The notes: generated by a model not told the origin, from the letters alone. Shown: positions 3,301-60,840, numbered from the stretch's first letter. The stretch: DNA of 64,000 nt from an uncultured Planctomycetota bacterium (GCA_963845755.1 CAWJTV010000013.1:192001-256000), one strand, 5' to 3'. A program made the numbers and translations.

Positions 3301-4549
3301 CCGGATCGTTCGTAACAAAGACCGAGGAGCAGATTCGACTGATAGGCCAGTTCCGGTTCGGCTCCGAGGAGGGGGTAGATTGACTCCAGTTCTCGCCTCG
3401 CTTCGATCCATCTCAGCTCACCGACGCCGATTCGCGCATCAAGATACTTGTGGAGCTCGAGACGGACCGGATTCTGTCTCAGTTCTTCGATGACTCTCTT
3501 CGCTTCTGCCCACTTTCGGTCGTCGATCAAGGTGTCGGCGAGCAGCCAGAGGAGCTGACTGCGTCCCTCGCGATCAACCGTGATATCGACGCTGCGGCGC
3601 AGACACATCTCGGCTTTGTCGAGTTGCCCAGTCTTTTTCTCGACCAGGGCCAATGCACTCGAGATCCGCCAGTTCTTAGGATCTAGCTCCTGGCAGCGCG
3701 TGAGGTCGCGACGGGCTACCTCGAAATCGCCACGTTCCGCGGCAAATGCCGCGGCGGTCAGCAGCACCTCGGGATCCTCCGGCGCTATTTTGAGAGCGCT
3801 GGCCACGTCTGCATCCGATCCCTCGATCTGGTTTGTCTTCCGGTAAAGCCCGCGCTCGAGGAACGCCCGGCATGATCCTCCATTGGCGGCGATCAAACCG
3901 TCCTTGACTTCGCGGGCGTCCATGACGCGATCAGCCCCATTCGGATCATTGAGCCGCCCGCGGAGCAAGTGGGCGAGCCGTACGTAGCCTTCGATCCGCT
4001 GGGCGCCAGAGCGATCGCCTTCTTGAAGTGGAGAGCAGCCTCGCCATCTTCGTGAACGCCTTCTGAGCATGCTCCCAGGAGGAATTCCAGCTCACCCTCT
4101 TGGGCAGTCGTTCGTCCTACACCCTGATCGCCAACGGATCTTTCGGGATCAAGCAGGAGTTTGAGATGGGTCCGAGCCAAGGGATACCAACCCAGCCCCA
4201 TGGCCAGGTGGACGACCTGGCGCCGTACCTCGTAGCGATTCGGATCGACGCGGAGCGCCTGCTCGAGGGTCTGGATGGCGCGGATTCGATCATCCACAGT
4301 CCGAGCCAGAGAAGCGAGGATCACGCCATACTTCGCGAGCGCCGCGGGATGGTTTGGTTCGTAACCCAGGAAAAGGCGCAGGCATTCCTCAGCTTGGACG
4401 AGGTCGCCGTCCTCTTCCGCTCGGGTTGCACGCTGCATCAATACGCCAGCATTGCGCCTCACTTGGACGCGATGTAACCCGGCGATCCCCGCCCCGATCG
4501 CGATTGTGGCGAGCAGAATGGAAATCAGCAATCGCCAGTTCAACCGCAC
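300..4549 (-). CDS. Large TPR-repeat protein (PrsT-like context), split by two frameshifts
   Basis: ORFs 3893-4549, 1131-4070 and 300-1037 are collinear TPR-rich pieces with an N-terminal TM helix; the gene abuts the exosortase. Confidence 0.8.
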
Positions 4550-5157
4550 TTTTCATCACTTCGATCCAACCTGAACCGGATCGAACGCCTCCAGAAGTCC
4601 GTCAAACGCCATGCTCTCCAGGCCGCTATCACCAACGTTCACCCGTTTTCCAGCCGCGATCAGCCAAACCCTTCATGGCCCTCCGAGAACCGACGCTGAA
4701 GAACCGAAAACGCGGATAAAACTCAACATCCAGCAATGCCAAGGGGTCTCACTCCTTGCCGAAGAAAGCATAAGTATGCTCATCCCAGCATAAACCCACT
4801 ATGAACGACCGACGTTAACGTTCGCATCTACTTCAACAACGCTCGATCAACTCCGGGGTCAAGAGTTAGACGAGAGCTTTTGCGGTTGGAGGCCCAATCG
4901 CCCGTAAGCAGGGGAAATTCGTTCGAGAGCGTTATTAACGAGTGTCTTGGGGACGGAAGCAGGGTCGAACCAGCTCACCACAGAATGGCGGAAGGCGAAT
5001 CCCTCCGGATGCCTTTCACCGGGTGGTGCAACAGCAACTTGGATCCTCTCGATGGAGAAGTCCTCTTGACCCCTGATTCTCGGCAGATTGCAGCCAATCG
5101 CGGGGAGCAGGTACGGTCGCGACGAAAAGACAATTCAGGATGGAATCTCCGGAGGAC

Positions 5158-6081
5158 TCATCCGGTCCGTCGCTGCCGGAATCGATCCAGACCAGCCTTA
5201 CCAACTAACAAGAGAAGCGCGGAGACTCCGAGAAGGATCGTCGGCATCTCGGGGGCGATGGCGACGGAACTACCTGAGATCGACAGGCTGCCACTCGAAA
5301 TCACGCTACCATCCATTGTCACACTCGAAAGATTGACCGTACCACCAACACCACTGCCGCCATTGAGACTCAGGATGTTGCCGGTGAACGTACCTCCACT
5401 TGCGGTGAGACTGCCGCCGTGGAGGATGTTGAAAAACACGTTGCCCGCACTAACGCCATTGAGAATGATTGAGGTTTGGCTGAAAGTAACGAGGTTCGAT
5501 ATGTTGAAGACAAATTGTTCGCTAGCGGTTCCATTGATCGTGATGCTGCCGCCGCTTATGCTGAGGGAGCTCGTCACAGCTAACACATTTTGGCCGGAAT
5601 GACTCGAACTCCCCGTGAAGATGTAGTTGCTGCCGATACCAGAGTTTTGAAGGAGGTTCGCATTGGGGTGCGCACCAGTTCCTGTCCAACCCGCGGCCGT
5701 CGATGCGACCTGGTCGGCAGCCGAAACGGCACCCGTCAAGTTGGACCCCGTCACCACACTGCCTGTGACGTTAGTGTGCGAAGATGATCCAGTAATACCC
5801 GTACCGATGTATATGTTTCCATTGACAGTATCGTTCGAAGCGGAGTAACTCTGGTCCAGGCCGACGTTGCCCCCAATTGTCGAGGTTAAGACGCTAATGC
5901 CGCCTGAGCCGGGTGTCTCGAGGACGGTGAAAGTTGCGGCTTGGCCGAGGTTTAGCGTCTGCCCAAAGCAGAGTGAGGGACCCGCAAGCGCAAGCCCCAA
6001 CCCGATGACCGCAGCGAATTGACTTGATGAGAGATTCGACCGATTGTTGTGAAAAATCATCGGGCCGGCCCCCAATTGCAA
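5158..6081 (-). CDS. Secreted Ser/Gly/Thr-rich protein, ice-binding-like (DUF3494-type), with PEP-CTERM-like tail
   Basis: Signal-like helix; LNLGQAATFTVL, QFVFNI, NVFFN and GNIL motifs; C-terminal APEMPT + hydrophobic helix + basic tail RFRQRR. Confidence 0.7.
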   Translation of the reverse strand: MQLGAGPMIFHNNRSNLSSSQFAAVIGLGLALAGPSLCFGQTLNLGQAATFTVLETPGSGGISVLTSTIGGNVGLDQSYSASNDTVNGNIYIGTGITGSSSHTNVTGSVVTGSNLTGAVSAADQVASTAAGWTGTGAHPNANLLQNSGIGSNYIFTGSSSHSGQNVLAVTSSLSISGGSITINGTASEQFVFNISNLVTFSQTSIILNGVSAGNVFFNILHGGSLTASGGTFTGNILSLNGGSGVGGTVNLSSVTMDGSVISSGSLSISGSSVAIAPEMPTILLGVSALLLLVGKAGLDRFRQRRTG

Positions 6082-6504
6082 AAAGAGTCAACGTCAAGTT
6101 GGCATCGTCGGCGATGTCACTCAATCCCTTGAGTCCAACATCAATCCGTTCAACCTCACCATGATACCAGGAAGCCACGGGGGAATGCAAGAGGGGAGTC
6201 GCGTTTCTGCGATCAATCCGGTTCATCCGGAATCCGCGCTCCACGCTTCCCCGCCCCGCGGACCAATCCCGTTACCGCTCACCTGCGCAGCACGGCACGA
6301 CACCCGCCACCAATCCGCGCGGCCGGTTCTGGCCGGGATCGTCATCAGGGTGTCCGTCCGGTGAAGTGCATCTACAAAGCGGTTAATGGGTGTGTGATCA
6401 TGTTCGGGGCACGGTTTTGGTTCCAGTGTGGGGCTCGGCGCATGCGATCGCCCCGAACTCACCTGGGGCGAGGCGAACGCGGGGCGGGACATGCCCGAGC
6501 CATA

Positions 6505-7502
6505 GAAACTATCCGAGAACGCCTCTGATGCTCATGTGGGATTTTGGTTTGCGTCAGCCTGACCCAGGCGGTCGAGCCGCCGGTACCAGTACAGCGCGCA
6601 GGCCAGTTGGATCAGCCCCAAGTCGTTGCCGTCCTTCTTGTCGTACCGCACCAAGATCCCGCGGCACTTCGACAGCCAGCCCACCGTCCGCTCCACGACC
6701 CAACGTCGCGGCTTGTGTCCGGGCTTCCTCGCGCCAGGCTTCATCTCCTCGCTGGCTTTATGGATGTTGAGGGATGTAGTTCGCCTCGGTCGCCGCTGCC
6801 CGGCCCGTGGGGTTCTCGTAACCCCCATCCAGGCAGAGGTTCTGCGGCGCCTCGCCGGTCGGTTCGGGGCGCTCGACCACGATGGCCTCGATCGTCCCGC
6901 GCAGGGTCTGCCTCTCCAACACGTTGGCCCCGGAGATCACCACCCCCAACGGCCTGCCCTGACCATCGACCACCACCGACTTCTTGGTCCCGTTTTTCCC
7001 ACGATCCGTGGGATTTGGGCCTACCTTTTTCCCCCCCGAACCGGGCCTTGCCCAGTGCCGCGTCGGCACTCTGCCACTGCCACTCGACGGCACCCAACTC
7101 GTCGCACTCGGCGACCAGCTCCGCCCAGATCCGTTCCATGACCCCGCCGGCACACCAGCGCTGGAACCAATCGTGGACGGTGCTCTTGGGGCCGAACTTG
7201 CGGGGGAGTTGCTCCCATTGGCAGCCGGTCCGCATGCGGAAGATGATCCCAGTGAGGGCGGTGCGCCAATTGGCAGTATGCCGTCCGGTCGGCTTCTTGG
7301 GCCAGAACGCCAAGAGGATGGGAAGGATTCGTTCCCACAGGGCATCCGGGACCTCCCAGATCGGTCCTAACCGCTTGGACTTCGGTTTCCGTCGCGATTT
7401 CCGCTTGGTCTTGGTCATGGCGGGACCCTCCTTCGGTTACGCTCTCGAAGAACATAACTCAAGCAGGATCCGGGCCATATCGTCAATTCTCGGATAGTTT
7501 CC
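6505..7502 (-). mobile_element. IS5-family insertion sequence (two-ORF frameshift type)
   Basis: Inverted ends gaaactatccgagaa (6505-6519) and ttctcggatagtttc (ends 7501); TA(G) on both flanks. Confidence 0.9.
6532..7418 (-). CDS. IS5-family transposase
   Basis: LWERILPIL...RTGCQWEQLP...STVHDWFQRW; GPNPTDRGKNGTK; RWVVERTVGWL. G7A5 slippery run at 7026-7037, plus a second shift near 6765. Confidence 0.9.
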
Positions 7503-7564
7503 TAGCGGTGATGTGCCACGCCGAAGGCGTGGGAGACTCCGGTCACTCCGTGATTCCCGCGACT

Positions 7565-9633
7565 TCACCGAACGAGGGCGGATGGCCGGTAGACGATGTG
7601 AAACCTCCGGGACACCGGCTCGAGAGGATCGGCTTGAACTTCGATGGTGCCCTGGTATTCCCCGGGTTTTTCGAAATCGCGCTCCACCTCGAAGAGGCCG
7701 TCCGGATCGATCCAGAGTCGCCGGCTCCAACCGTCGTTGAACCGCACCGTGCCGGTCACGATCGGCACGTCCCGATCGTAGACGCGCAGATCGAAGACAT
7801 AAAGCGACTTCAGCCCGATATGCCCATCGGGAATCGTCGAAGTCCGCAGGAACTGGGCCATGGCACTGTCATCGTGGTCATCTCGCCCCTTCATCCGGCG
7901 CGGACAAGAATCGTCCGAGCGCCCCGGACCCATTCCGAGATGTTAACCGGTGCAGCGTAGGGCCAGATCGTACTTCCGTGAATCACTGCTTTCCAGGCGC
8001 GATCGCGATCGGTCGAAACTTCGAGGACTCCGCTCGCATCCGCGGCGTCGAGAGAAAGACTCGCATAAAGCGATGCCGAGCGGACGGGAAAAGCCAGCGC
8101 GAACTTATAGACCACTTCGAAGTCTTTGCGGTCGTCGATCGGTCCCCAGTAACGGATGCCGTGGCGCTTTTCGCTCCAGATCCGGGCGTTCCTCGTCAAT
8201 GAGCCGTCGAGGTAGGACTTGTGCCGATCGTCGTTCAGGTCGAACTGGATCACTTCCCTCGGGGCGCGAACGGTACTCACCGCCGGTGAGATGGCGACGC
8301 GGCCCACGCCCATGTAGTGCTTCTGATCCACGTGCAGATCGTTTGCTGGGGTTGTCAACTCCAGGTGTCGGTGGGCGAGAGGTGTCGCACCCCGACCCTT
8401 CTGCGGGCGATCGACCAAGGACAGTCCGAGAACCGCGAGCAGCATCAACACGATGGCGGCCGCGCCGATCGTGATGACCCGCCCGGCTCGCAACCCGGAT
8501 TTCCAGGGTCGTTCCGTGCGGTGCTTCGCTCCATCCGACAAGAATCGATCCAGCTCATCCGCGAGGTCACGGGCCGTCAGATATCGTCGCTTTGGGTCTT
8601 TTTCCAGGCATTTGAGGCAAATGGCATCCAGCGACCCGGGAACGCGGTGATCGACGTGTGATGGCGGGTCCGGACGCTGGCCGACGACCTGGAAGACCGT
8701 CTCGATCGGCGAGTCGCCGCGGAACGGTGGCCGGCCGGTCAACAGTTCGTAGAAGATCGCGCCCAGTCCATAGACGTCGATGGCCGGGCCGACCGTCATG
8801 GCTCGATTCCTGGCCTGTTCGGGTGCCATGTACGACGGCGTGCCCAGGACCATGCCGGAGAGGGAGGCATGGGCCGGGCTATCCTGATCCAGGCGCCTGG
8901 CCAGGCCGAAGTCGGTGAGCTTGAGCCGGGCGGGGTCGAGAGGCTCATCGCGGGGGCCGGCCACCAGGACGTTCGCGGGCTTCAAGTCGCGGTGGATAAT
9001 CCCGCGATCGTGCGCCTCCTGGACCACCCGGGCGAGCGCGGACGTGATCCGGGCCGCCTCCGGCGGCGGTACGGGCTGGCCGCCAAGGCGTTGGGCGAGG
9101 CTGCCCCCTTCGACCAGCTCCAGGCACAGGTAAGGGACGCCCTGGTGTTCGCCGAGGTCGTAGAGCGCGACGACCTGGGGATGACGGAGCCGGGCGATCG
9201 TCATCGACTCCTCGCGAAACCGCTTGATGGCCCTGCGCGAGGCGTGCGCACCGGCCGTCAGCATCTTCAGCGCGACCAGTCGATCGAGCTTGACCTGCCG
9301 GGCCTTGTAGACGACTCCGGATCCGCCTCGACCCATCACGCCGAGGACCTCGAAGCCCTCGACCTGGATGGAAGCCGGCAGTCGCGGTTCCGAGTCGAGG
9401 GGACCGTCCTCGTCGCGGGGATCGTTGCTCTCGCTGGACGAAAGCGGATTGCGAAGGCCCCACAGCTCCCGCCAGCGGACCTGGTCCGCGTGCTCGGTCG
9501 GGTCCTCCAGCAGCGCTCGGCAACGGGGACATGCGGCGAAGTGAGCGGCGATCGGGTCCCCAGGTTGAGGATCAAACGAATCGTCGAGGTATTGGCGCAG
9601 CACGCTCGGATCCGGACAGCCGTCGCACTCCAT
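7565..9633 (-). CDS. Ser/Thr protein kinase with N-terminal zinc-finger-like motif, TM helix and extracytoplasmic domain (probable frameshift near 7900)
   Basis: GRGGSGVVY, VALK, HRDLKPAN, DFG and GTPSYMAPE motifs; HxxxCxxC at the N-terminus; ORF 7565-7933 is the likely continuation. Confidence 0.9.
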
Positions 9634-10240: not shown

Positions 10241-10439
10241 GCTTCGCCTCGAATCGATCGGTTTGCGATACGGACGAACAGCAAATGATGGATGTTAGCG
10301 GGCGGACAAGCCCGATGCAAGCGAAATTCAGAAAAATCTATGAACGAGGCGCAAGATTTCGAGCGATGGCGGGGTAGTTCTCCTCTTCGGGGTGATCGAT
10401 GGAAGGTGGATTGGTTCAGGGCAAACGGGACAAGCAGTA

Positions 10440-11493
10440 GGGTTGTTCTGAAATAACGGTCCTGTACACTATGTGGAGCACCAGGAGGCTCCTCGATGAT
10501 CCGCTATGCGACGCTCCGAGTTACCCCCAAGATCTTCCCCGCCTTGACCGGGCTGACTCTCGGGGAATTCGAGCGGCTCGCCGCGGAATTCGCGGCGGCG
10601 CACGCCCGAACCCGGGCCGCCTCGACTCGCACCAAGAAGGGCACGCCCCGCCGCCGCGCCCGGGCGCCGGCGCCCCGCCGTCGCTGGACCTGACCGACCG
10701 GCTGTTGATGGCGCTGGTCTGGCTGCGGATCTATCCCACCTACGAGCTGCTCGGCTGGCTCTTCGGGTTGGAGAAGTCCAACGCCTGGGAGAACGTCCAG
10801 GACGCCTTGGCGGTGCTCGAGACCCTGGCCGACTTCCCGTTCGAGCGGCCCGCCGCCGGCCGCACCCCGCTGGCCACCCCGGCGGCGGTCTTCGCCGCGT
10901 TCCCGGAGGTCAAGATCGTCATCGACGGCAAGGAGCAGCCGTTCCGACGCCCGCAGGGATGGGATCAGCAGAAGCCGTTCTACTCCGGGAAGAAGAAGCG
11001 GCACACGGTCAAGAACCAGGTCGTTTGCACGCCGGAAGGACGGATCGGTGGGGTTTCCGAGACGGTCCCTGGCTCGACCCACGACCTGACGATGATGCGG
11101 GGTGACGGCACGCTGGACCGGCTGGAGGAGGGGGAATCGGCGATGGCCGACAAGGCCTACACCGGAGGCCAGAAGGACCGCCCCGGGACGTCCCTGGTGG
11201 TGCCGACGAGGGCGACGCGAGGCCACCCGCTGACGGCGGAGCAACAGGCGGCGAACCGGGTGATCAGCGGGTACCGGGTGGTGATCGAACCTGTGATGGC
11301 CCAACTGAACCGATTTCAGGTGCTCAAGCAGGTCTTCCGCAGCGCGTTCCAGCGGCACACCGGGGTGATCCGGGTGGTGGCCGCGTTGGTTGACCGGCGG
11401 ATCGCGGCGGTGCCCCTGAAGACCTACGCAGTGAACTGATCCCGAAGGGGGTCAGGGGGACAGAGACGACTGTCGGCTATTCCAGAACAACCC
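10440..11493 (+). mobile_element. IS element (IS5/ISL2-like, DDE_Tnp_4 type)
   Basis: Inverted ends gggttgttctgaaata and tattccagaacaaccc; TA duplicated on both sides. Confidence 0.9.
10496..11439 (+). CDS. Transposase (HTH + DDE), frameshift near 10670
   Basis: FPALTGL N-terminus; IVIDGKEQPFRRP, YSGKKKRHTVKNQ, PGSTHD, ADKAY, RVVIE motifs. Confidence 0.88.
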
Positions 11494-11509
11494 TAGTGTC
11501 TCTCGGCTT

Positions 11510-11557
11510 TGCACAACGAATGCCCCCTGCACAACGATTCACCGGGCTGCACAACGA
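11510..11557 (+). repeat. Three direct repeats of tgcacaacga
   Basis: Copies at 11510, 11528 and 11548. Confidence 0.75.
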
Positions 11558-11903
11558 ATCGAGAATGAAGGAATTCAGAGACGCGCGATTTGGATGCGAA
11601 ACTTGATTGCATGCAAATCGTTGCGATCCACGCCCAATTACAAATGGGGAATACTTCGAGATTTTCAAATTGGGATAAATGGGCAATACTTGATGAAAAT
11701 ACGTGCTACGAATCTCTGTCGAAATCTGTTTCGGTGCAGGAACCTTGTAAGGTGATCCGGCGTTCATTAAGCTATCAAGAAGATCTAGCCGATAGCCACC
11801 GAGGTCACCTCTGGTGGCTATCGGCGCGCGCATGATGCATGCACGCAACTGATCCGAGCCATCACTATTAGTGATGCAGACTGTGGCCACAGGAGAAGAA
11901 GCT

Positions 11904-14482
11904 GTGAACACCCTGGACTTCACTGGCGCACAGCGACGACTCGTGGAATCGGTGCTCACCGCCTTGAGGACGCTTGGATATCGCGATGAACTCGTCGCCG
12001 AAGATTATAAATATCTTGATCGATTCGTAAGTCGCCATCCCCAAAGGCAGATTCGGGCAGCCCTCTTCGGTAGGACTCCTGTATCATATGGGACAGCACT
12101 TATCGGCGTAGCAGAGGCCAATGGGTCACACGGCGCGTACTTTGGTTAACGAGCATCGTTCGCTAGGAGCCCCGGTGGTCTTGGAAATCCAAGATGAAAC
12201 CATCGGGATTTGGGCGGTCAGCAGGGAGGAAGGATCTGCCTATCTTGAGCACAGCGTTGATGAAGTTGGATTTCGGCGGTGGATAACAGACAACGAGAAA
12301 GCTCTCCAGCCGAATGAGTTCTTGCGGACGAAGGAAGGCGTCGGACGCGTCCCTACTTTTTTCCAACCTAGCCTTTTTGCGGGACTCATCCCCGAGTTGG
12401 AATTGAAAATCAGGAAGTCTCTTGATCCGATCTTGCTCCGCGAAATCAAGGCCGGAGTTGATGCGTATAGGGGGGCTAAAGGCTGCGACCCACCAGAACG
12501 AGAGTTATTCAAGCTCGCGTTCTGGATACTGACGGGCAAGGTCTTCGCCGATCGGAATCACAAGGACTTCGCCGATCTCGATTCTCCAGGTAGTCCCGAA
12601 ATCGTTCTCAATCGGGTCGCCAAGCATTACAACCAAACCGAATACAAGTTGTTGAATCATGAGGCCAGAGAAGCCGTGTTCAGCCACGTTTGGGGTCGCA
12701 CGGATTTCCGCAACCTTTCTGTGGAGGTACTCTCTCAGATCTGGTCAAGAACCCTTGTTAGCGAGGAAACTCGGAAGAAGCTAGGTATCCACCGGACGAG
12801 AAGGAGCATCGTTCGTTATATCGTCGATCGCATCCCTTTCGAATCCTTTAATCTGGAGCACAGACGAGTATTAGAGCCGTGTTCGGGCAGTGCGACATTT
12901 CTTGTTGCTGCGCTTGATCGCATGCGCGACATTCCCCCTGAGATCTCCGACCCGGTGGCCCGACATGTTTACTTCCAGCGAATGTTGACCGGATTTGAAC
13001 GAGATCCGTTTGGGGTTGAGATTGGGAGCCTATGTCTCGCGTTGGCCGACTATCCTAATCCAAATGGATGGAACATAAGGCCAAGCAATGTATTCAAATC
13101 GCCAGAATTCGGCCCTGCTTGCCAGGTTGCCAGGATCGTGTTATGCAATCCTCCTTTTGAAGATTTTGATGACGAGGAATACGAAGAAGTGAGGGCGACC
13201 ACAAGACATAAACCTGCGGAGTTGCTTGGCCGCATTCTCGACTCGCTCCATCCGCAAGGGGTGCTTGGCTTCGTTTTGCCACGGTCTTTCCTTGACCACC
13301 GTGGCTACGCGCCGATTCGCAGAAGGATTGTCGAGCGATACGGTAGCATCGACCTCTTGTCCCTCCCCGGGAAAGGATGGGAGCATGCCGACAAGGAGAC
13401 GGTACTCTTGATCGCGACAGATCCTGCCACGCACACGCAAGCAATCGTATCATTTGCGAAGGTGAAAGAGAAGCACTGGCGCGAATTCGAGCGGCTCCAT
13501 GAGGTCGATTTTCGTGCCGAAGAGAGCAAGTCAAGCGAAGACGCTGACAAATCGCTCGCGGTCCTCGAATTGAAAGAGGTTTGGGATTATCTCGCCTACT
13601 GCCCGCAGCTTGGCGAGATGGCAGAGGTTCGAAAGGGGATTGAATGGAGCTTAGACCAAGAAGAGCATCGCGACCTGCTTGTTCGATCAGAACCTCGGGA
13701 TGGCCATGATGATCGTGTTGGTATTGCGCCTCAAGCGTCACCGTTCTTAGCCTTCGAGTGCACCGCCCATTGCTTATCTCAACTTCGATACAGAGTATCA
13801 ACGACGGCCCAACTCATTTGAGCGGTCTTGGGACCAGCCGAAGATTATCCTGAATAGAAACCGCAAATCTCGGCCGGGACCGTGGAAACTCGCAGCATTT
13901 GCTGACTTCGAGGGGCTAGCGTGTTATGAAGCTTTCATCGCCGTATGGCCCAAAGACAACGGAATGATCGTGCCGATCGTCGCTGTCCTCAACGGGCCGG
14001 TCGCTAGCGCATTCGCGGCGGTAAAGGAGACGGGAGCCCATGTCATGGTAAAGACGATTCGCCAAATCCCCGTCCCATTCTTCACGACTCAACAAGCGGA
14101 AGAGATCGGGACGCTCGTGGCGGAGTATCGCAAGGCTATTGGAGCTGCTCATCCGCTTGCTGTCCAGCAAGCTTACGGGGAGGCCGATAGGCTGCTTCGT
14201 CAGATTGACGCAATTGTATTAGAGGCGTATGGCTTGCCGCCGAGGCTTGAACGCGTGCTTTTAGATTACTTCAACGGTTTCAACAACCGGCCGATTCCAT
14301 TTCGCTTCGCCGACTACTTTCCGCATGACTTCAAGCCGTTCTTTTCTCTGAGGGATTGGTTGACTCGGCGCCACGCTCAGGCAACGATCGAACGATTTCG
14401 GGGACAACCCCTGGAATTGCCCAGTCACATCCGCCGAGCGCTGGAATTGGCGACCAATGATGACGACGGGGGCGAAGAATGA
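11904..14482 (+). CDS. Amino (N6-adenine type) DNA methyltransferase, type IIG-like layout with TaqI_C-like TRD, two frameshifts
   Basis: Motif I VLEPCSGSATFL, motif IV NPPF, GVLGFVLP; C-terminal PKIILN...GPWKLAAF...AVLNGPVASAF. Joined from ORFs 11871-12149, 12121-13821 and the frame ending 14482. Confidence 0.85.
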
Positions 14483-15204: not shown

Positions 15205-15210
15205 GCCAGA

Positions 15211-15278
15211 ATTGTAATGACAAAAAACTTACGGGTCAAGCAGTCAGGTCTTGACTGTAAGTTTTTTGTCATTACAAT
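15211..15278. promoter_or_regulatory. Symmetric divergent promoter/operator
   Basis: Perfect 22-bp inverted repeat (15211-15232 and 15257-15278); TTGACN-N16/17-TACAAT on each strand. Confidence 0.75.
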
Positions 15279-15335
15279 AAATGTGTCATGAACGATGCCA
15301 ACGCGAACCCGACCTTCCTTGGAGGGGTCTGACCC

Positions 15336-15833
15336 ATGTCCGCGGTTGCAACGATCAAGGAGACACTCGATCCAACTGAAACCCGCCGACAGCGCGGGCT
15401 CGCTATTGCGGCCATGACTCGGATCGAACAGAAGAAATCTGGTCTCTGGGCAGTCCCAAGCCAGACCGGTAACGGCGCCTATTGGGTGCGGCTCGACTTG
15501 GAACAACCGACGTGCACCTGCAAGGATTTCGAGGAACGCAGTCAACCGTGCAAGCACGTCTTTGCAGTCCAATTCGTCAAGCAACGGGAATCCCATCCGG
15601 ATGGCACCGAGATCACCACCGAAGTCATGACGGTGGTCAGGCAGACCACAGTCAAGAAGCCGACCTACAAGCAGAACTGGCCTGCCTACAACAAAGCCCA
15701 GACGACCGAGAAGCACCGTTTCCAGGTCTTGCTTGCTGAGTTGTGTCGCGGCATCGTGGAACCTGTGCGCAAGACGACTCGGGGTCAACAGCCTCTCTCG
15801 CTGGCCGATATGGTCTTCTCTGTTGCGTTCAAG
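15336..15833 (+). pseudogene. SWIM zinc-finger protein, probably the N-terminus of a truncated transposase
   Basis: VPSQTG..Y.V...CTCKDF....CKHVFAV (SWIM), then TYKQNWPAYNKAQTTEK; the coding sequence breaks at the repeat at 15833. Confidence 0.7.
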
Positions 15834-16024
15834 GGGCCGAAAAGGGGGGCCGAAAAGGGGACGGAACGAATTAACGACCTTTAACAAAACAATTCGCTCC
15901 GTCCGTTTCGCGGGCCCCGACCCCTTTAGCGCAGGGGCCGAAAAAGGGGACGGAACGAATTAACGACCTTTAACAAAACAATTCGCTCCGTCCGTTTCGC
16001 GGGCCCCGACCCCTTTAGCGCAGG
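15833..16024. repeat. Tandem pair of 88-89 bp GGGGAC-tagged palindromic units plus a partial copy
   Basis: Units 15846-15933 and 15934-16022; each holds the inverted arms ggacggaacgaatt / aattcgctccgtcc. Confidence 0.9.
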
Positions 16025-16084
16025 CGGAGAACGGAAGGCGTGAGTCATCGGACATGACCGGCCAACCCAACACAGGAGAACCGG

Positions 16085-16315
16085 ATGGACTGGCAAGATC
16101 GAATCAGCGTGGACCCGAAGGTGCTCGTCGGCAAACCCGTCATCAAGGGGACGCGCATTGCTGTCGAGTTTGTCGTGGACCTTCTGGGCCGAGGGTGGAC
16201 GACGGAGCAGATTCTCCGTGAATACGATCACCTGACCGCCGAAGACATCCAGGCGTGTTTGGCCTACGCGAGCGAAGTCCTCAAGTCGGAGCGGGTGTAC
16301 CTCTTGCCGACATGA
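16085..16315 (+). CDS. DUF433 antitoxin-like protein
   Basis: RISVDPKVLVGKPVIKGTRIAV...ILREYDHLTAEDIQACLAYA. Confidence 0.92.
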   Translation: MDWQDRISVDPKVLVGKPVIKGTRIAVEFVVDLLGRGWTTEQILREYDHLTAEDIQACLAYASEVLKSERVYLLPT

Positions 16316-16326
16316 AGGATCTGGCG

Positions 16327-16725
16327 ATGCGCTTTCTCGCCGATGAGAACGTCACCGGGACCGTGCTTCAGGAATTGCGGCAACGGGGGCATGATGTGCT
16401 CTCGGTCAAGGAGTCGATGCGCTCCGAGCGGGATGATGTGATCTTGGCCCGTGCCCAGGCGGAACAGCGAATCGTCATCACTCACGATAAGGACTTCGGT
16501 GAGTTGGCCTTCCGGTCGCAACTGCCTGCTTCCTGCGGCGTCATCTTGATTCGGTTGGCAGGGAGCGAATCCGATACGGACAACCAACGGATTCTCGAAG
16601 CCTTGGAGAGCCGGACGGATTGGACCGGGCATTTTTCGGTCATCACCGACAACAGGATCAGAATGCGAGCGTTGCCCGTAGTTCCGCCGCCCAGAGGTGC
16701 AAGACCGAGAAAGCGCAAGAAATGA
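16327..16725 (+). CDS. DUF5615 PIN-like toxin
   Basis: MRFLADENV...GHDV...ITHDKDFGEL...GVILIRL. Confidence 0.9.
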   Translation: MRFLADENVTGTVLQELRQRGHDVLSVKESMRSERDDVILARAQAEQRIVITHDKDFGELAFRSQLPASCGVILIRLAGSESDTDNQRILEALESRTDWTGHFSVITDNRIRMRALPVVPPPRGARPRKRKK

Positions 16726-16900
16726 CCGACGCCAGACACAACCTAATATATAAGTAATATCATATTCTGGGAAAACCGGGGACATAGGGAAAACCGGGAA
16801 GGGATGGGACCCGGGATCAAACTTTGTTATTTGTTTCCGGGCGGCTCGCTCATCGGCGAGTCAAACGGCTTTCGACCCTTCTCGAACAGACATTCACCCC

Positions 16901-17797
16901 AGCGCGGAATTGCGCGGAATTGGTGTCAGCGCGGAATTGGTGTCAGTGTGCGCCGTGAAAAGGTTTCGGATTTCCAGGGGTAACCATGCCCCCCGGCAAC
17001 TGGGTCGCTCCAGCCGGAAGCTATCGGAGCGGCGGTGGAGGTAACGAAACCGTCGGAGCCTTCGAGACAACGGGCCACAAGGTGGTCCGGCGATCAGGCA
17101 GGCCGTAACGCGAGTGAACGTTGAGCAGGCCTCGAAACATTTAATGTGGGCGCCGACCCGGCACTGACACGGGGAAGGCTGACATCGCTGACGATCAAGG
17201 CGAGGCTGGAATACGCCGGACCACGAGCGAACCGTCCCAGCGAGCCCGCCGGGGTAATGACGACGGCATGCCTGGATGGGGAAACCGAAGCAACACGGGA
17301 AACCCGCGCGGTGAGTCGCGTGGACTCAACCGGACGCCCGTGAGGGACAGGCCGGGCCGCCTGGGGTGGCGGAGAGCCTCGTAGTACCGTGGACGCCGGG
17401 TAACTCCGGTCGAGGGAAGGGGACTCAGTTCAAGGCCCGTGTCGGAAGGGGCCGACAGCCGGGAGATTGGCGCAAGCCTGCAAACTCCACCCACGGCTGG
17501 GACGTTCCGGAAGGCATGACATCTCATCGGCTCACCAGCCTACGTGGGTCGGTGAATGGGGCGCCTTGTCCGAGAGCCGGGTGCGGGAAATCCGCCTGCC
17601 CGGTTCGATGAGCGGGGTGTGGAAACGGGGCATGGTCGAGATGGTGGGACACCCGCAGACGAAAGGGCGGGCTAACAGGGGAAAACAAACTTCGACCTAA
17701 ACTACCGCGCCACACCTCGACTCTACTCATTTTTCCGCCGGAAAAATGAACTGACACCAGACACGACCGGAAAAATGAACTGACACCAGACACGACC
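16901..17797. repeat. GGTGTC-tagged palindrome split by the intron, with stuttered half-sites on both sides
   Basis: Joined exons give ggtgtcagttcatttttcc-gcc-ggaaaaatgaactgacacc; gcgcggaatt(ggtgtca) is repeated on the left and ccggaaaaatgaactgacaccagacacga occurs twice on the right. Confidence 0.85.
16948..17726 (+). ncRNA. ORF-less group II intron (779 nt)
   Basis: 5' GTGCG; domain V gagccgggtgcgggaaatccgcctgcccggttc (17574-17606); domain VI ending cgactctAC; EBS1 actgac(ac) at 17163 complementary to the 5' exon; no RT ORF. Confidence 0.9.
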
Positions 17798-17988
17798 AAA
17801 AGACTGATCGCCCCGAGCGGCGGCCGACGCGCCGACGGAGGGTCGGTGACGATCCGGCACCACCAGCCGGGCTCGGTTAGAGCCCCTCACCAATCCCAGG
17901 GGCGCGCTTCACACTTTTCGCGCGCAGAAGCGGAGCGATCGCGCCCGGAATTGTGGATCGCCCCGATCGCCGGCGTTCCGAGGGAGGT

Positions 17989-18501
17989 TCAGCGATTCGC
18001 CAGCTCCTTCCACGCCCACAGGCACGCCAGGAAGAAGCGTTTCTCATCGGAAGACGCCAGTTCCGTGAAGGACCGGACTCGACGCTCGACCAGATTGATC
18101 AGCAGGAGCACGTTCGACCGCTTGAATCGGTCCGTCAGGTCGTAGTCGGCGACGTGTCGTCGCTCCTGGAGTTCGACGAAGGTCTCCGCCAGTTCGCGGA
18201 TCTCCGCGGGGATCGCGAAGCTCCCCGGCAGTCCCTTCGCGACGCCTTTCTTGAGCGTCCCTCCGCCGAACGACTTGCAAGCCTCCTTCATGGCTCCGTG
18301 GACAAAGGCCCGCCCCAGGACCTGCCGGTACGGGGCCTGGTTGTGGTGCGACCCGATCTGGATGCGACAGGCCTCATCCACGAGCATATGGAAGAGGGCG
18401 TAATACGCCGAGGAGATCGCACGACGTAGGTTGGCCTGCTTCGGTTTCTTGGCATCGAGCTTCGCCAGCCGGACCGCTTGTTCCAGAAGGTCCTTGTACA
18501 C
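17989..18501 (-). CDS. HEPN-domain protein (putative toxin)
   Basis: LRRAISSAYYALFH and LQERRHVADYD motifs. Confidence 0.8.
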   Translation of the reverse strand: MYKDLLEQAVRLAKLDAKKPKQANLRRAISSAYYALFHMLVDEACRIQIGSHHNQAPYRQVLGRAFVHGAMKEACKSFGGGTLKKGVAKGLPGSFAIPAEIRELAETFVELQERRHVADYDLTDRFKRSNVLLLINLVERRVRSFTELASSDEKRFFLACLWAWKELANR

Positions 18502-18504
18502 GGC

Positions 18505-18816
18505 TCATTCCTCGTCGTCGTCCTCTTCGAGCTCGCTCGGCTTCGCGAACCCGATGTAAGCCCACCGCTCAACGTCCAGCTCACGGATGCGGCTGCGAAT
18601 GGCGTTCACCAGATCGGAGAGGTCTTGACCACTCACGTTCTCGACGTCCACATCCTCGTCGATGACGATCGTCACCCGCAGCGCATCCTCCCCGTCCGAG
18701 TCGACGTAGTCCTCGACGCGGATGTTGACGACCTTGGGATTCCGCGGCAGCTTCGATTTCACCTTGCCGAGCTTCAAGGCGTCCTGGACCTTCTGGATCA
18801 TCTGATCGACCGCCAT
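18505..18816 (-). CDS. Small acidic partner of the HEPN protein (MNT-like antitoxin candidate)
   Basis: EDYVDSDGEDALRVTIVID; ends 3 nt before the HEPN start; GGAGG RBS. Confidence 0.7.
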   Translation of the reverse strand: MAVDQMIQKVQDALKLGKVKSKLPRNPKVVNIRVEDYVDSDGEDALRVTIVIDEDVDVENVSGQDLSDLVNAIRSRIRELDVERWAYIGFAKPSELEEDDDEE

Positions 18817-19009
18817 GGTGTCACCTCCTGGGAAAGCCGGGCTGCTGGGAACGCGACCGGTTCTCCCCACAGCCATCCTACCAGATTCCTGGCCCCGCTC
18901 GCTCGTTGGGTGTCGCCGGGGGTATCCGTCTTCATGTCGCCTGACACCTCCCACACGCCCTCTCAGGGGCCCCGATCTCTCGTTCGACTCACGCGCTCAC
19001 CCCGGCGGG

Positions 19010-19114
19010 GCAGGCCAACGGGGACGGAGCTGAGCAGGCCAACGGGGACGGAGCTGAGCAGGCCAACGGGGACGGGGCAGGCCAACGGGGACGGGAGCAG
19101 GCCAACGGGGACGG
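19010..19114 (+). repeat. Five stuttered copies of gcaggccaacggggacgg
   Basis: Copies at 19010, 19034, 19058, 19077 and 19097 with 1-6 nt linkers. Confidence 0.9.
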
Positions 19115-19118
19115 AGGT

Positions 19119-19695
19119 GAATGGCATTAAGGTCACTAAACCGAAGGGGCATCAGGTCTTGAGATGACAGGGGCTTCCGCGCACCATGGTATTTTTCCCC
19201 GGCACCCTGGCACAGGAGGCCCCCGCGATGCATCGACGGATTTCTACCCTCCTTCACCGGCTCCGGCAAGACCTCGCCGCCACCCTCGGCACCGACTTCA
19301 TTCTCGCCGCCTGTCTGGCCGCCGGCCACACGTGGAGCGACGCCGCTCTCTTGACCCCGCCGGCCATCATCCACTGGTTCCTCATCCAGATCCTCCACGG
19401 CAACACCTCCTTGACCCATGTCTCCCTCCTGGCCGGCCGGGCCTTCAGCGACGCCGCCTTCTGCATGGCCCGCGCCCGGCTCCCGCTGGCCGTCTTTCAG
19501 GCCGTCCTTCGCCACATGGTCCGGGCCGTGATACCGGACACCGAGGCCATCGGCCGCTGGCGCGGCCATCGTACCTTCCTGGTCGACGGCTCGTCCTTCT
19601 CCATGCCCGACACCCCGGTCTTGCAAGACCACTTCGGTCAGCCCGGCAATCAGGCCAAGGGGTGTGGCTTCCCGGCGGCCCACCGGCTGGCGCTG
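19119..19695 (+). mobile_element. Truncated IS4-family element (transposase start 19228)
   Basis: LLTPPAIIHWFLIQILHGNT...FCMARARLP...WRGHRTFLVDGSSFSMPDTP..GCGFP; breaks at about 19695; probable left end gaatggcattaa. Confidence 0.8.
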
Positions 19696-19830
19696 GGGGG
19701 AAGTAATGGGGACATCGCTAAATCACCCTGCGGGTTAGGCAATCTGGAAAGGCGTTCGTCTCTCCCGACGGAGCGACCCCCGCCCCCGATCGACTCTACG
19801 ATCACCGTCAGCACTGATACAGTGGGCGCG

Positions 19831-19921
19831 GAAATGAAGAAAGTTGTATCCGGCAGGCCGAGTCTGCCTGGGATCCGGCGAGGCTCTGCCCCGGCCCGCC
19901 GGATACAACTTTCTTCATTTC
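19831..19921. repeat. 91-bp MITE-like inverted repeat
   Basis: 30-bp arms gaaatgaagaaagttgtatccggc(a/g)ggccg with 1 mismatch. Confidence 0.85.
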
Positions 19922-20042
19922 TCGTCCTAGCTGCGTCCCCGTTTCTCGTCCCCAACGGTACATCTCATCCGACCTTCGGGCACCTTCTCCCGGGGGGAGA
20001 CCGTGGGAACGAGGGACGGATTCGAGTCACGGTGTGAACCAT

Positions 20043-38325: not shown

Positions 38326-39117
38326 GCACACGTCCGCTGATCCGCGAGAATCGTGGAGCTGTCGCGGTTTTCACGCTCAACCGCCCCGAGCGTCGCAATG
38401 CCTTGTCGCGTGCGCTGCTGGCCCAGCTCCGCGACGCGGTCGACGATGTCGGCGTCGATCTGGGGGTCCGGGTTGTCGTATTGACGGGGGCCGGAGCCGC
38501 GTTCTCCACGGGCATGGACCTCAAGGAGGCCGCGGACATGCACGCCGCGCCCGACGGCGAACACGCGATGGTCGCCGTCTCGAAGGAATTCGCCGATTTG
38601 CTCCAGTGTATCCACACCCTCTCCAAACCGGTGATCGCCGCGGTCAACGGCGACGCGATGGCCGGCGGTGCCGGCCTGATGGCCGCCTGCGACCTGGCCG
38701 TCGCCGCCGAGACTGCCCGCATCGGCTATCCGGAAGTCCGGCGCGGGCTGGTTGCCGCGATCGTGATGCACGACCTGATCCGGCAGGTCGGCGACCGTCT
38801 GCGCGCGCCAACTGCTCCTGACCGGCGACTTGATCTCCAGCAAGGTGGCTCATGACTGGGGCCTCGTCAATACCGTCACGCCGCCCGAGCGTTGTCTCGA
38901 GGAGGCGATCCGGATGGCCGAGGGCCTCATCGCGAATGGGCCGATCGCCCTGGCGACGACCAAGCGGATCCTCGATGAGGCCGAGGGCCGCCCGCCGAAC
39001 CTCCGGGGAGCCGCGGCGATCAGTGCCGTCGTCCGGGCCTCCGAGGAGGCCCATGAAGGCATCAGCGCGTTCGTCGAGAAGCGAACGCCGCGATGGGCCG
39101 CCTCGAAACCGGGTTAG
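38322..39117 (+). CDS. Enoyl-CoA hydratase/isomerase (frameshift near 38800)
   Basis: LNRPERRNAL, FSTGMDL, KPVIAAVNG.AMAGG, EGISAFVEKR. Confidence 0.92.
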
Positions 39118-39328
39118 CCAGAAGTCGAAGGGCATTCCAGATTCCGGATTCGAGATTCCGGATTCTCGGGCCCTGGTGTCGAAGGTATGATTCGAATCCC
39201 ATCGATCGAGGTCCTTGAAACCGGGTTGGCCAGAAGTCGAAGGGCATTCCAGATTCCGGATTCGAGATTCCGGATTCTCGGGCCCTGGTGTCGAAGGTAT
39301 GATTCGAATCCCATCGATCGAGGTCCTT
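39105..39328 (+). repeat. Tandem duplication, 2 x 112 bp, containing gattccg-type heptamers
   Basis: Units start at 39105 and 39217; one mismatch seen (ttagcc vs ttggcc). Confidence 0.9.
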
Positions 39329-42429: not shown

Positions 42430-44430
42430 CCCCAACAGAGTGGCATATAGCCCGTTGATACCTGATACTGTCATCCCTCTGAGCCGCCTCAGAGGGCGTT
42501 GAACCCGACCCTGACGCCGGATTGCTGCTTGCATGGAGGTGATCGTCCTCGCGACGTCCTACCACGGAGAGCGGACATGACACGACGATCGGCCTTGGGA
42601 CGGCACAGCCTCCGCATCCACCGGGAGTTCGTCCCCTCCCGCTGCCAGCTCCGCGCCCTGGCCTTGGCCTTCGAGCAGGCCCTCCCCATCATCCGGAGGC
42701 CGCTGACGACGCCGGCACGACCACAAATGTTCGTTGATTCTGATTTGAATTCGTTCACACAACCAGGCCGTTCGGGGGCCCTCCGATGACCGAACCCATC
42801 GACCGCCGCGCCGCCTTGTACGCCAGGGTCTCCACCGAACAGCAGGCCCAAGAGGACACGATCGCCAGTCAACTCGATCTGTTGCGCCGGCGGATCCAGG
42901 CCGATGGCCTGACCGTCGCCCAGGAACTCCAATTCGCCGACGACGGTTATTCGGGCGAGACCTTCCGGCGCCCCGCCCTGGAACGGTTGCGCGACACGGC
43001 CGCCGCCGGGGCGATCGACCGGATCTACATCGAGTGTCCCGACCGATTGGCACGGGATTACCCGTATCAGATGGTCGTGGTTGACGAGCTGCGCCGCCAG
43101 GGCGTCGAGGTCGTCTTCCTCAATCACGACCTCGATGAGAGCCCCGAGGGTCAACTGCTGTTGCAAGTCCAGGGGATCATCGCCGAATACGAGCGGGTCA
43201 AGGCCCGTGAGAAGTGTCGCCGCGGCCGGCTCTACGCGGCGCGGTCGGGCCAGGTCAGCGTCCTGGGCGGTGCCGCCTTACGGATACCATTACCACACCA
43301 AGCAGGAGGGAGGTGGCGCAGGCCCGGTATGTCGTCCAGTTCGCCGAGGCCCAGGTGGTCCGAGAGATCTTCACCTGGGTGGGGATCGAAGGATGTTCGC
43401 TCAGTCAGGTGTGCCGACGATTGCGAGAACGCGGGCTCCTTACCCGCACGGGCAAGGCGCATTGGGATCGGGCCACGGTCCTGGGCATGCTGCGCAACCC
43501 GGCTTACATGGGGACAGCCCACTTCAACAAGGTCCATTGCGTCCCGGCCCGTCCCCGGTTGCGCCCGCGTCGGGGAGTCCCCGAGTTTCCACGGCGACAC
43601 ACCGCCAAAGCGGCGACGCCCCCCGAGGACCAGATCCCGATCCCGGTGCCGGCGATCGTGGAGCCGGCCCTGTTCGAGGCCGTGCAGGAGCGGCTGGCGG
43701 AGCACCGCCGACATCCCGGCCAGGCGGCCCCCCGGCCGCGCCATCTGCTGGCGGGCTTGGTGGTGTGCCAGCGGTGTGGTTACGCGTATCGCGGTCGGGC
43801 CATGAAGAAGAAGGGAGGGAGTCGCTATGGCTATTACCGCTGTTATGGGGCGGAGGCCGAGTCCTTCGCCGGCCGGGCCCGGATCTGCGACAATCCGGCG
43901 ATCCGGATCGAACGTCTGGACGAGGCGGTGTGGTCCGATGTGCGCGGGTTGTTGCTGGAGCCGGAGCGGTTGGCTGAGGAATTCGAGCGGCGGTTGAGTC
44001 GGGCGAACCGAGGCGAGGGGACGACTCAGTCGAGTCGGAGCCTGGACAAGTTGATCGGTCAGGTCCGCCGCAGGCTGGCGCGGCTGGTGGAGATGTACGC
44101 CGACGGATACATCGAGAAGGAGAAATTCCAGAGAGATATGGATATTTCTCGAACACGAATGTCAGAATTGGAGTTGGAGCGTCGGGCGATGGACCAGGAG
44201 GAACAGCAACGGGAGGAGTTACGGTTGGTGATGGGTCGGATCGAGGAATTCGGGGCGCAGGTACGCGCCGGTTTGGATACCAGCGACGTGGCGACGCGTC
44301 GTCGGATCATTTGTGCACTGGTCAAGAAGGTCGAGATCGATGCGGAGGCGGTTCATATTGTGTATCGTGTGAGCCCTCGCCCTTTTGCCCAAACGGCCCC
44401 GACAGACGGTAACATGCCACACTGTTGGGG
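42430..44430 (+). mobile_element. Minimal large-serine-recombinase element (about 2.0 kb)
   Basis: 17-bp inverted ends ccccaacag(a/t)gtggcat at 42430-42446 and 44414-44430 enclose only two ORFs. Confidence 0.8.
42577..42789 (+). CDS. Small ORF coupled to the recombinase
   Basis: GGAG RBS; ATGA overlap with the recombinase start. Confidence 0.6.
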   Translation: MTRRSALGRHSLRIHREFVPSRCQLRALALAFEQALPIIRRPLTTPARPQMFVDSDLNSFTQPGRSGALR

Positions 44431-44503
44431 CCGTTCTACGGCCCTTCAGGCCGCCGGAAATCGGCTGTCCTTATGTGCGCAACCCACGCGTAAAGCGCTC
44501 TAG
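42786..44503 (+). CDS. Large serine recombinase (frameshift near 43270-43320)
   Basis: ALYARVSTEQQ, DDGYSG...RPALERL, PDRLAR, LRNPAYMG, LLAGLVVCQRCG..YYRC, coiled coil. Confidence 0.93.
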
Positions 44504-60243: not shown

Positions 60244-60840
60244 TCAAGGATTCGCCCGGCCGACCGCGATCTTGGGTCGGGTCGGACCGGAAATCAGTCG
60301 GAAGGTCAGCGGCAAGACCTGACTGGAAAGGACGAGGGCATCGTCCAGGCGGGCACGCCCGACCAGTTCCCACCGATCGCCTTCTCTTCGATGAAGCTCC
60401 AGTTGCCAGGGGTTGCGGTCCACCAGGTGCAATTCGCGGACGCCAACCTTCGCATAGAAGCCGAATTTCTCGCGCGAACGATCGAACCGGCTCGTGATCT
60501 CGACCGCGTAATCTGGCCCGCCGAACCAATGCGATCCCCGATCCTCAGCCGGGTTCCCCGGGAGGAACACGGCGACATCGGGGCATCGATAATTGCGTCT
60601 CCAACGCTTGGGCTGATCGCTGATATTGCAACCGGCGAAGAGCTGAATCGGTTCATCAGGCCCCAGGACGTTCCGGATGTCGATCGCGAATTCGAGTCCG
60701 AGCCGCTGATGCTCGTTGTCGGCCAGCGGCGGCATGACGTAGACCCCGTTCCAGACCTCGTCCCGGAGATCGCCGCCGGAGGCGCGGCGCTTCCGGATCA
60801 GGCGCTTCAATTCACCGGGATCGAGGCTCACGATGGCCAT
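60244..60840 (-). CDS. Uma2 family (PD-(D/E)xK) endonuclease
   Basis: EVWNG..MPP..EHQ, RCPDVAV, PDYAVEITS, K..FYAKVGVRE. Confidence 0.9.
   Translation of the reverse strand: MAIVSLDPGELKRLIRKRRASGGDLRDEVWNGVYVMPPLADNEHQRLGLEFAIDIRNVLGPDEPIQLFAGCNISDQPKRWRRNYRCPDVAVFLPGNPAEDRGSHWFGGPDYAVEITSRFDRSREKFGFYAKVGVRELHLVDRNPWQLELHRREGDRWELVGRARLDDALVLSSQVLPLTFRLISGPTRPKIAVGRANP

Follow-up and report, generated by a model that had tools for sequence, protein, structure and literature searches.

Hairpin-forming intergenic repeats as probable landing sites for mobile elements in a decayed mobile-element and defense island of a planctomycete

The genes in a stretch of about 4 kb from an uncultured Planctomycetota bacterium (positions 15833-19955 of the 64,000-nt window analyzed here, CAWJTV010000013.1:192001-256000 of GCA_963845755.1) are separated by short intergenic repeats that form hairpins, belong to a lineage-wide family and carry GG(G/T)G(A/T)C words in their arms. 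An earlier note on this DNA had taken these repeats, or tags, for the joints of an integron-like array, at which a trans-acting enzyme would cut and join toxin-antitoxin modules and transposase fragments. We consider it probable that the tags are not integron-like joints, and that they are hairpin-repeat landing sites for mobile elements in a decayed mobile-element and defense island. Two insertions figure in this reading: a putative group II intron without a protein gene, which sits in the left arm of one hairpin, and an IS4-family insertion sequence, which adjoins the last unit of a tandem array of words and whose relatives strongly prefer such words as targets. Coordinates are those of the window, unless a comparison locus (L number) is given.

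The words had been reported at 15.85, 16.77, 16.9-17.8, 19.0, 19.71 and 19.94 kb; all were found in place, most of them tandemly stuttered (see below). The region holds 13 copies of GGGGAC or its complement GTCCCC, where 3.4 would be expected from its share of the 53 in the window; when tandem copies are collapsed, only 7-8 separate places are left, and the window alone is thus weak evidence. The comparison set consists of 46 loci, each with a gene for a relative of the IS4-type transposase; they stem from Singulisphaera and from metagenome-assembled genomes (MAGs) of Isosphaeraceae and other Planctomycetota, and most are long-contig MAGs sharing one record-name prefix. In 0.96 Mb of comparison sequence, exact ACGGGGACGCAGCT has 51 copies at 16 places (expected, 0.02) and exact GGTGTCAGTTC eight copies at five places (expected, 0.41), and a third word family carries GGGGTCAG(AC). 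These cross-genome data are strong, and they uphold the view that the tags are related and non-random. The words usually make hairpin arms, as in an 89-nt unit and in the hairpin at 19831-19921 of the window and in the hairpin versions of GGTGTCAGTTC in L034 and L008. In other planctomycete assemblies they adjoin broken mobile elements, toxin-antitoxin genes and restriction genes; the neighbors of arrays include PIN and PhdYeFM genes (L005), an Eco29kI restriction-methylase-Vsr set (L046), AHJR-like and Uma2 nucleases and several transposase fragments. The impression that tags stand beside small defense modules has some basis, in loci that were all chosen via the insertion sequence.

The tag described as a ggtgtcagttc palindrome with duplicated halves (16.9-17.8 kb) is present; what interrupts this hairpin is a group II intron of 779 nt, which had been missed. 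Positions 16948-17726, on the top strand, are predicted to be a group II intron without a protein gene (ORF-less; ORF, open reading frame). The D1-D4 core, at 16974-17113, matches Rfam model RF02003 over its full length (1-138) with 81.7 bits (gathering threshold, 49), and domains V and VI, at 17572-17702, align with RF00029, with a good fit of the domain V helix (about 17574-17607) and a long insert in domain VI. The conserved group II ends GUGYG and AY are matched by GTGCG at 16948 and ...CTAC at 17726, the 5' end reading GTGCGCC and the 3' end ...CGACTCTAC. A blastn search of plasmids with the intron returned 80 records. One relative, L001, is the intron of a Planctomyces sp. SH-PL62 plasmid and has an annotated ltrA gene; another, L002, is a gene-less relative of 725 nt on a Bradyrhizobium plasmid and aligns over 16946-17731 of the window. 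Both intron ends are common to L001 and L002 (the 3' end is found also in L003, L016 and L036, the 5' end also in L006, L016 and L036), and the shared ends, GTGCG(C/A)CGTGAAAAGG and ...CTCGACTCTAC, place the bounds of the window intron at 16948-17726. The window intron lacks positions 3565-4862 of L001, almost exactly the protein gene, and would thus be an ORF-less derivative. The protein of L001 combines RVT_1 with GIIM and lacks an endonuclease domain; no homologue of it was found in the window.

The palindrome looks split because the intron sits in the left arm of a perfect hairpin: once the intron is taken out, the joined flanks fold into a stem of 20 bp, perfectly paired, and a loop of 3 nt (-22 kcal/mol, z -8.7). 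The 5' exon ends in GGTGTCAGT (16940-16947, intron-binding site 1 or IBS1), which is the outer left arm of the hairpin, whereas the 3' exon (17727-17797, top strand) holds the inner left arm, the loop and the right arm (17727-17758), as well as a 29-nt unit present twice (17738-17795). Exon-binding site 1 (EBS1), ACTGACAC at 17163-17170, lies in a loop directly before the conserved GGGGAAGG and is complementary to the last eight exon bases, GTGTCAGT; in the window, all eight positions pair (8/8) between the loop ACUGACAC and the exon GUGUCAGU. EBS1 covaries with its own 5' exon in L001 (7/7), in L006 (8/8, with two G-U pairs) and in L036 (6/8). Four of the seven visible 5' junctions in the family of the window intron, namely those of the window, L006, L016 and L035, end in a word, and L014 holds an intron-free copy of the L016 intron site, itself stuttered. 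Nested elements were also seen among the comparison loci: L036 has an IS4-type element inside a group II intron of the window intron's family (4399-8156), and an IS4-type transposase gene in L025 (10001-14185) is interrupted by a D1D4-6 intron that itself holds a D1D4-2 intron core. The D1D4-6 and D1D4-2 introns of L025, L032 and L045 were considered as word-hairpin introns and rejected, not being located in word hairpins.

The second insertion is represented by the left 577 bp of an IS4-family insertion sequence (19119-19695, top strand), with left end GAATGGCATTAAG and transposase residues 1-156 of 451 encoded at 19228-19695. The ORF matches NCBIfam NF033592 (E 7.6e-11, model positions 31-136) and is 91% identical to the first 156 residues of a PF01609 protein of 451 aa (4497 matches among 8000 candidates scored); the 5' untranslated part of the element matches L004-L011, and the only protein matches in plasmids are below 60% identity. 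The termini of the relatives are GAATGGCATTAAG and its complement, both ends being present, and at least 12 related copies have identical flanks of 10-11 bp on both sides. Among 75 end flanks, 34 have a duplicated target whose outer edge is GGGAC: this word opens 16 of them, and GTCCC closes 18, against a background of 0.14% per orientation; some few of the 75 end-motif matches are due to chance. The IS4-type element strongly prefers GGGAC-N6 targets. The duplicated target is GGGACGCAGCT in L006, L007, L008 and L031, GGGACAT-type words serve as target duplications in L015, L017, L021 and L026, and in L016 the insertion site is a sequence related to the repeat found at 15833-16024 of the window. 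The window counterpart of the duplicated target, GGGACGGAGGT (19108-19118), is formed by the last 11 nt of the array at 19007-19118. Since the end of the element lies at 19119, with the motifs outside it and the target at the end of the array, the element inserted into the array, and the array is not part of the element. A reading of the 19.0-kb and 19.94-kb motifs as ends of one element is not supported. That the IS4 remnant has its inverted ends in the 19.0-kb array and at 19929-19958 was considered and discarded, because the true ends in relatives are GAATGGCATTAAG/CTTAATGCCATTC and the motifs lie outside them. The right end of the element is absent from the window, where the end motif occurs only at 19119, and the window copy shows no full inverted-repeat pair or target duplication.

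That two transposase ORFs break at or within about 15 bp of a motif was correctly seen: homology stops at 15833 in the SWIM ORF, exactly at the start of a repeat (0 nt), and at 19695 in the IS4 ORF, 13 nt before GGGGAC. The former belongs to the remnant of an insertion sequence with SWIM and DDE_Tnp_1 domains (15205-15833, top strand; Pfam SWIM), whose ORF, at 15336-15833, corresponds to residues 1-169 of about 450; it has 333 longer homologues with PF01609 and PF04434, mostly of 430-490 aa among the 120 matches listed. Judged by homology, each of the two ORFs is the first third of a transposase of about 450 aa. No further piece of the IS4 or SWIM transposase was found by tblastn of the window, and the absence of the missing parts points to deletion, not simple insertion. 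At L010, a SWIM-DDE fragment (residues 5-113) breaks at 13837 straight into a three-unit array, the join being at a shared AACG, and at L006 an intron stump (protein residues 1-113 only) adjoins a 21-unit array (4010-4610). That mobile elements end at tags reproducibly is supported by these cases. An AT-rich, perfect 22-nt inverted repeat (15211-15278) lies between a NikA/RelB-like gene and the SWIM ORF, and L010 has AT-rich palindromes at the equivalent place; the window repeat could serve as an operator, or it could mark where the insertion sequence has its left end.

The arrays have a marked polarity. We parsed 15 arrays of the GGGGACG family, picked by eye, the other two word families being left out. 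Each of the units (107/107) begins anew at the prefix peculiar to its array, a stretch of 8-13 nt upstream of the word, and the unit ends vary: among 92 internal units, 19 stop inside GGGGACGCA, 54 stop 0-8 nt past it and 19 further on. The largest arrays reach 26 units and about 700 nt. The same pattern of fixed start and variable end is found in the window at 15833, 16769, 16902 and 19007, and on the bottom strand at 17738-17797. The first of these (15833-16024, no strand assigned; detected by the program TRF) opens with 13 nt of a partial copy, after which come two units of 89 nt that are 98% alike and each carry AAGGGGACGGAAC; a unit folds as DNA into an imperfect hairpin (-21.6 kcal/mol, z -3.05), with AAAAGGGGACGGAACGAATT and its imperfect complement in the arms. 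At 16769-16800 (top strand), GGGAAAACCGGGGACATA is followed by a second start of GGGAAAACCGGG, so that GGGAAAACCGGG begins twice, and the first copy runs on into the word GGGGACATA. The 5' exon of the intron is stuttered at 16902-16947 (top strand; TRF), with GCGCGGAATT and then GCGCGGAATTGGTGTCA twice (to 16946), that is 10 + 17 + 17 nt with a fixed start. The 29-nt unit of the 3' exon contains CTGACACC and reads, on the bottom strand, as a prefix followed by GGTGTCAGTTC... The array at 19007-19118 (top strand) has five units with AACGGGGACGG, all starting with GCAGGCCAAC-GGGGACGG and all ending differently, and shows no secondary structure of its own (fold z +1.3). Measured from the point where an intron has inserted or could insert, units start 18-20 nt upstream (24 nt in L035); 18-20 nt is about the length of the DNA target of such introns, which may be coincidence.

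Beyond the break in the IS4 ORF, the stretch at 19696-19830 (no strand assigned) has the word ATGGGGACAT at 19705-19714. A 31-nt piece of it (19718-19748) has 93.5% identity to L005 7072-7102, upstream of a small ORF that we presume to be HigB-like, and may be a leftover toxin-antitoxin promoter. Another piece, of 22 nt (19778-19799), is 77% like the intron 3' end; it was rejected as a second intron stump, since a search for domain V, at E up to 1, found none in this piece. The long hairpin at 19831-19921 (no strand assigned) has 30-nt arms with 97% complementarity (fold -39.1 kcal/mol, z -8.5) and a homologue at L021 16233-16325. It is adjoined by the word ACGGGGACGCAGCTA, with a 9-nt direct repeat, GGACGAGAA, on either side (19923-19958, bottom strand); this last segment, which holds two copies of CGTCCCC at 19934-19953, matches L006 9623-9653 with 96.8% identity over 31 nt.

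We infer the following order of events from the borders and pairings, which are themselves observed. The words would act as landing sites in that the arms of the hairpin repeats receive mobile elements. An intron that had lost its protein gene would first have retrohomed into the left arm of one hairpin; an IS4-family element would then have inserted into the last unit of the 19.0-kb array; later deletions, ending at repeats, would have taken the distal two thirds of the IS4 and SWIM-DDE elements. The stutter would be a polar local amplification of the outer edge of the repeat. The process behind it may be new: in the literature we found no description of stuttered arrays at intron or insertion-sequence targets in planctomycetes, nor of words with locus-specific prefixes and polar truncated stutters. 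We tentatively suggest, as a possibility somewhat short of even, that DNA synthesis enters the hairpin, aborts in the arm and restarts at the same upstream point; this could occur if synthesis at a stalled fork, in replication or in repair, switches templates, and the same process could make the deletions. More speculatively, and in our opinion doubtfully, Isosphaeraceae-type planctomycetes may have an undescribed mutational process, a polar, hairpin-anchored micro-amplification in which the outermost 20-25 nt of GG(G/T)G(A/T)C hairpins are copied over and over. A dedicated activity acting in trans would drive it, be it a nick or primer at a specific site or an intron reverse transcriptase that jumps between templates. 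Group II introns and the IS4-type element would thereby gain arrays of homing sites, and the deletions that truncate mobile elements in defense islands would have the same source.

Several observations count against the landing-site reading or parts of it. Every one of the 46 comparison loci was picked for carrying the IS4-type insertion sequence, so that the apparent association of arrays with mobile elements is inflated. Arrays were not seen in L023 and L024 (Singulisphaera acidiphila, 42.6 kb) or in L004 and L039; they have no match in 72,556 plasmids, and neither has the 89-nt unit. For the intron, the domain V/VI match to RF00029 (37.5 bits, E 6.2e-5) is just below the gathering threshold of 40, the pairing of EBS1 with the exon is poor in L016 and L002, three of the seven related introns lie outside words (L001, L002 and L036), and three introns of the D1D4-6 family are not in words. 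As for the stutter, simple slippage does not predict a fixed restart and truncated units, which weakens the mechanism suggested above.

The role of a trans-acting enzyme was examined by a Pfam search of the 202 window ORFs of at least 100 aa and of 109 ORFs near arrays at other loci. The idea survives in so far as the machinery would be supplied in trans, by an intron ribonucleoprotein with its protein encoded elsewhere and by a DDE transposase; the HUH enzyme of the RAYT type (a tyrosine transposase associated with repetitive extragenic palindromes, or REPs) that had been proposed was not found. None of the 202 or of the 109 ORFs (0/202 and 0/109) encodes such an enzyme, nor was a Y1 HUH transposase flanked by tags found among them, in a scan that did not extend to whole genomes. 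Integron integrases and reverse transcriptases are likewise absent from both sets of ORFs, and the sole recombinase of the window is a split serine recombinase about 23 kb from the array.

The word hairpins might instead be small non-autonomous elements, similar to miniature inverted-repeat transposable elements or REPINs, that duplicate 9-12 bp of target, with arrays as self-insertions or as footprints of insertion and excision left by some transposase. We regard this as unlikely. In its favor, the words are conserved across genomes and the 8-13-nt prefix is locus-specific; the 15-nt word at 19923-19958 stands between identical 9-nt repeats, one prefix occurs twice at 16769-16800 with different continuations, two genomes have a word array directly against the interior of a SWIM-DDE gene, and most prefixes end in AAC, a hint of a preferred target. 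However, an insert of 15 nt is too short for a complete element, 19 of the 92 internal units retain no more than 1-8 nt of the word and are unlike insertions, none of the 311 ORFs tested encodes a candidate enzyme, and the missing parts of the broken genes are absent, as expected of deletion rather than of simple insertion.

Rather improbable, in our estimate, is an origin of the stutters by reverse transcription, in which the reverse transcriptase of an endonuclease-less group II intron jumps between short templates with fixed 5' and ragged 3' ends, and the concatemer recombines into the locus. Group II intron reverse transcriptases template-switch, and jumping from the end of one template to the next would produce units that begin at one point and end at several. 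The intron 5' exons of the window and of L035 are stuttered, the units start 18-20 nt (24 nt in L035) upstream of an existing or possible intron insertion point, and the related intron protein has no endonuclease domain. Yet arrays occur at many places with no intron nearby, the empty site of L014 is stuttered across the insertion point, the window has no reverse transcriptase gene, and nothing indicates a transcript that starts at the prefix.

Stutters could, in principle, be artefacts of assembly or base-calling at hairpins. Most of the comparison loci share a record-name prefix and are long-contig MAGs, which keeps this possibility alive: most arrays are found in them, and none in the finished S. 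acidiphila loci or in two short-read-style contigs. We nevertheless find it very improbable, given arrays of up to 26 units and about 700 nt, insertion sequences within arrays with clean 11-bp duplications (L007 and L031), the same words across assemblies and in the window, and a two-unit stutter with 100% identity in the complete chromosome of Singulisphaera sp. Ch08 (L048).

Scarcely credible, finally, is the cassette model of the earlier note, in which a HUH (RAYT-like) enzyme cuts and joins at tags to assemble toxin-antitoxin cassettes into an integron-like array: both small-gene pairs (see below) are indeed flanked by tag repeats, arrays elsewhere stand beside the PIN and PhdYeFM genes (L005), the Eco29kI restriction-methylase-Vsr set (L046) and other nuclease genes, and REPs are hairpins acted on by RAYTs (PMC3733652), but no HUH/Y1 gene and no integrase gene adjoins the array, the two pairs are on opposite strands with nothing to show that they move as units, the three largest "joints" are explained by the intron, the insertion-sequence end and the hairpin repeats, the repeats lack the REP-type layout of a GTAG or CGTC tag with an 8-13-bp stem given in the same source, and tblastn of the window's small proteins against all loci placed no same gene pair in a different tag context, the only hit being that of the SWIM-DDE query (P0002) to the L010 fragment.

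With the landing-site reading, the unsupported integron-like model is replaced by concrete annotations: an ORF-less intron, two transposase remnants, and an insertion-sequence end with its target. In planctomycete genomes, a single family of intergenic hairpins would draw together insertions by mobile elements of two unrelated kinds, and as a consequence broken mobile genes and small defense modules would pile up between the repeats. The polar stutter, which recurs in several genomes, offers a clean and testable signature of a DNA-synthesis or repair process.

Of the small-gene pairs between the repeats, the first, on the top strand, consists of a DUF433 gene (16085-16315; Pfam E 3.2e-25) and a DUF5615/PIN_10 gene (16327-16725; Pfam E 1.2e-23), as had been claimed, and is a predicted toxin-antitoxin module. 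The second, on the bottom strand, had been called HEPN/MNT-like. It encodes a UPF0332/HEPN-like protein of 170 aa (17989-18501; 505 homologues) and an acidic partner of 104 aa (18505-18819), with Atlas clusters at 0.94-0.98 for the pair. Neither protein has a match in Pfam, NCBIfam, PADLOC or the PDB. Many of the 120 matches listed for the 170-aa protein, among the 505 homologues, are named "UPF0332 family" by one source, a family that we take to be connected with HEPN, and in a distant Atlas cluster 14% of the members have HEPN; for these two reasons it is plausible that the 170-aa protein is HEPN-like. The 104-aa partner gave no nucleotidyltransferase signal.

The window has a G+C content of 63.7% and encodes the planctomycete hallmark domains PSCyt1, PSCyt2, PSD1 and DUF1501. 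Mobile-element and defense genes span about 10.4-20.0 kb, where a DDE_Tnp_4 insertion sequence, an apparently split N6 methylase, a PIN gene and the NikA/RelB-like gene precede the region studied here. The DDE_Tnp_4 element (10439-11497) is apparently intact, with inverted ends TAGGGTTGTTCTG, and is followed at 11505-11560 by three copies of GCACAACGA(A/T)T, perhaps another small stutter. The N6 DNA methylase gene (12121-14482) looks broken; an ORF at 13964-14482 matches weakly the C-terminal end of type II methyltransferase models. Elsewhere in the window, a fragment of a DUF4096 (IS4/5-family) transposase gene (6741-7418) and a Uma2 nuclease gene (60244-60840) each lie beneath a longer ORF of the opposite strand, and the large serine recombinase is apparently split in two frames (Resolvase N-terminal domain, 42786-43805; Recombinase domain and zinc ribbon, 43214-44503). 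A 112-nt unit occurs twice at 39101-39328, the copies 98% alike, with internal runs of the heptads ATTCCAG/ATTCCGG, which a AGATTCCGGATTCC run at L006 15894-15924 resembles. Among the comparison loci, L016, in a record titled Bacteroidales, has a planctomycete-type insertion sequence, intron and word repeats, and its bin label may be wrong.

The region can be compared with several known systems. It resembles an integron array in having small defense-type modules between hairpin-forming repeats, and differs from it in the lack of intI, of a uniform orientation (DUF433/DUF5615 on the top strand, the UPF0332-like pair on the bottom strand) and of evidence that the modules move. The IS4-type element is typical of its family in its DDE_Tnp_1 transposase of 451 aa, its short terminal inverted repeats and, in the relatives, its 10-11-bp target duplication; it stands apart in the marked preference for GGGAC at the target edge (34/75 flanks), and the window copy is a 577-bp left-end remnant. 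REPs and bacterial interspersed mosaic elements (BIMEs) are short intergenic hairpin repeats and are reported to be preferred targets of particular insertion sequences (PMC1525189, Tobes and Pareja 2006); ISPpu9 reportedly inserts in REPs (PMC12288879), and the REP layout is given as a GTAG or CGTC tag with a stem of 8-13 bp (PMC3733652). The window repeats are like the REPs and BIMEs so described in being short intergenic hairpins, often paired or clustered and targeted by insertion sequences. They are unlike them in having words with locus-specific prefixes and polar truncated stutters, and no associated RAYT gene was found; hairpins are present at the tags, CGTC lies inside the reverse complement of the word, and the layout differs from that of the published REP families. 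Class C group II introns home to terminators and to attC stem-loops. The window intron shares with these stem-loop-homing introns an endonuclease-less lineage, a hairpin target and a place outside coding sequence, whereas it lies inside the left arm and not after the stem, has a long EBS1-IBS1 pairing of 8 bp and has a core of type D1D4-4. ORF-less group II introns are mobilized in trans, and the window intron would fit among them: it appears to have kept all ribozyme domains and to have lost the protein gene from domain IV, which its relative in L001 retains.

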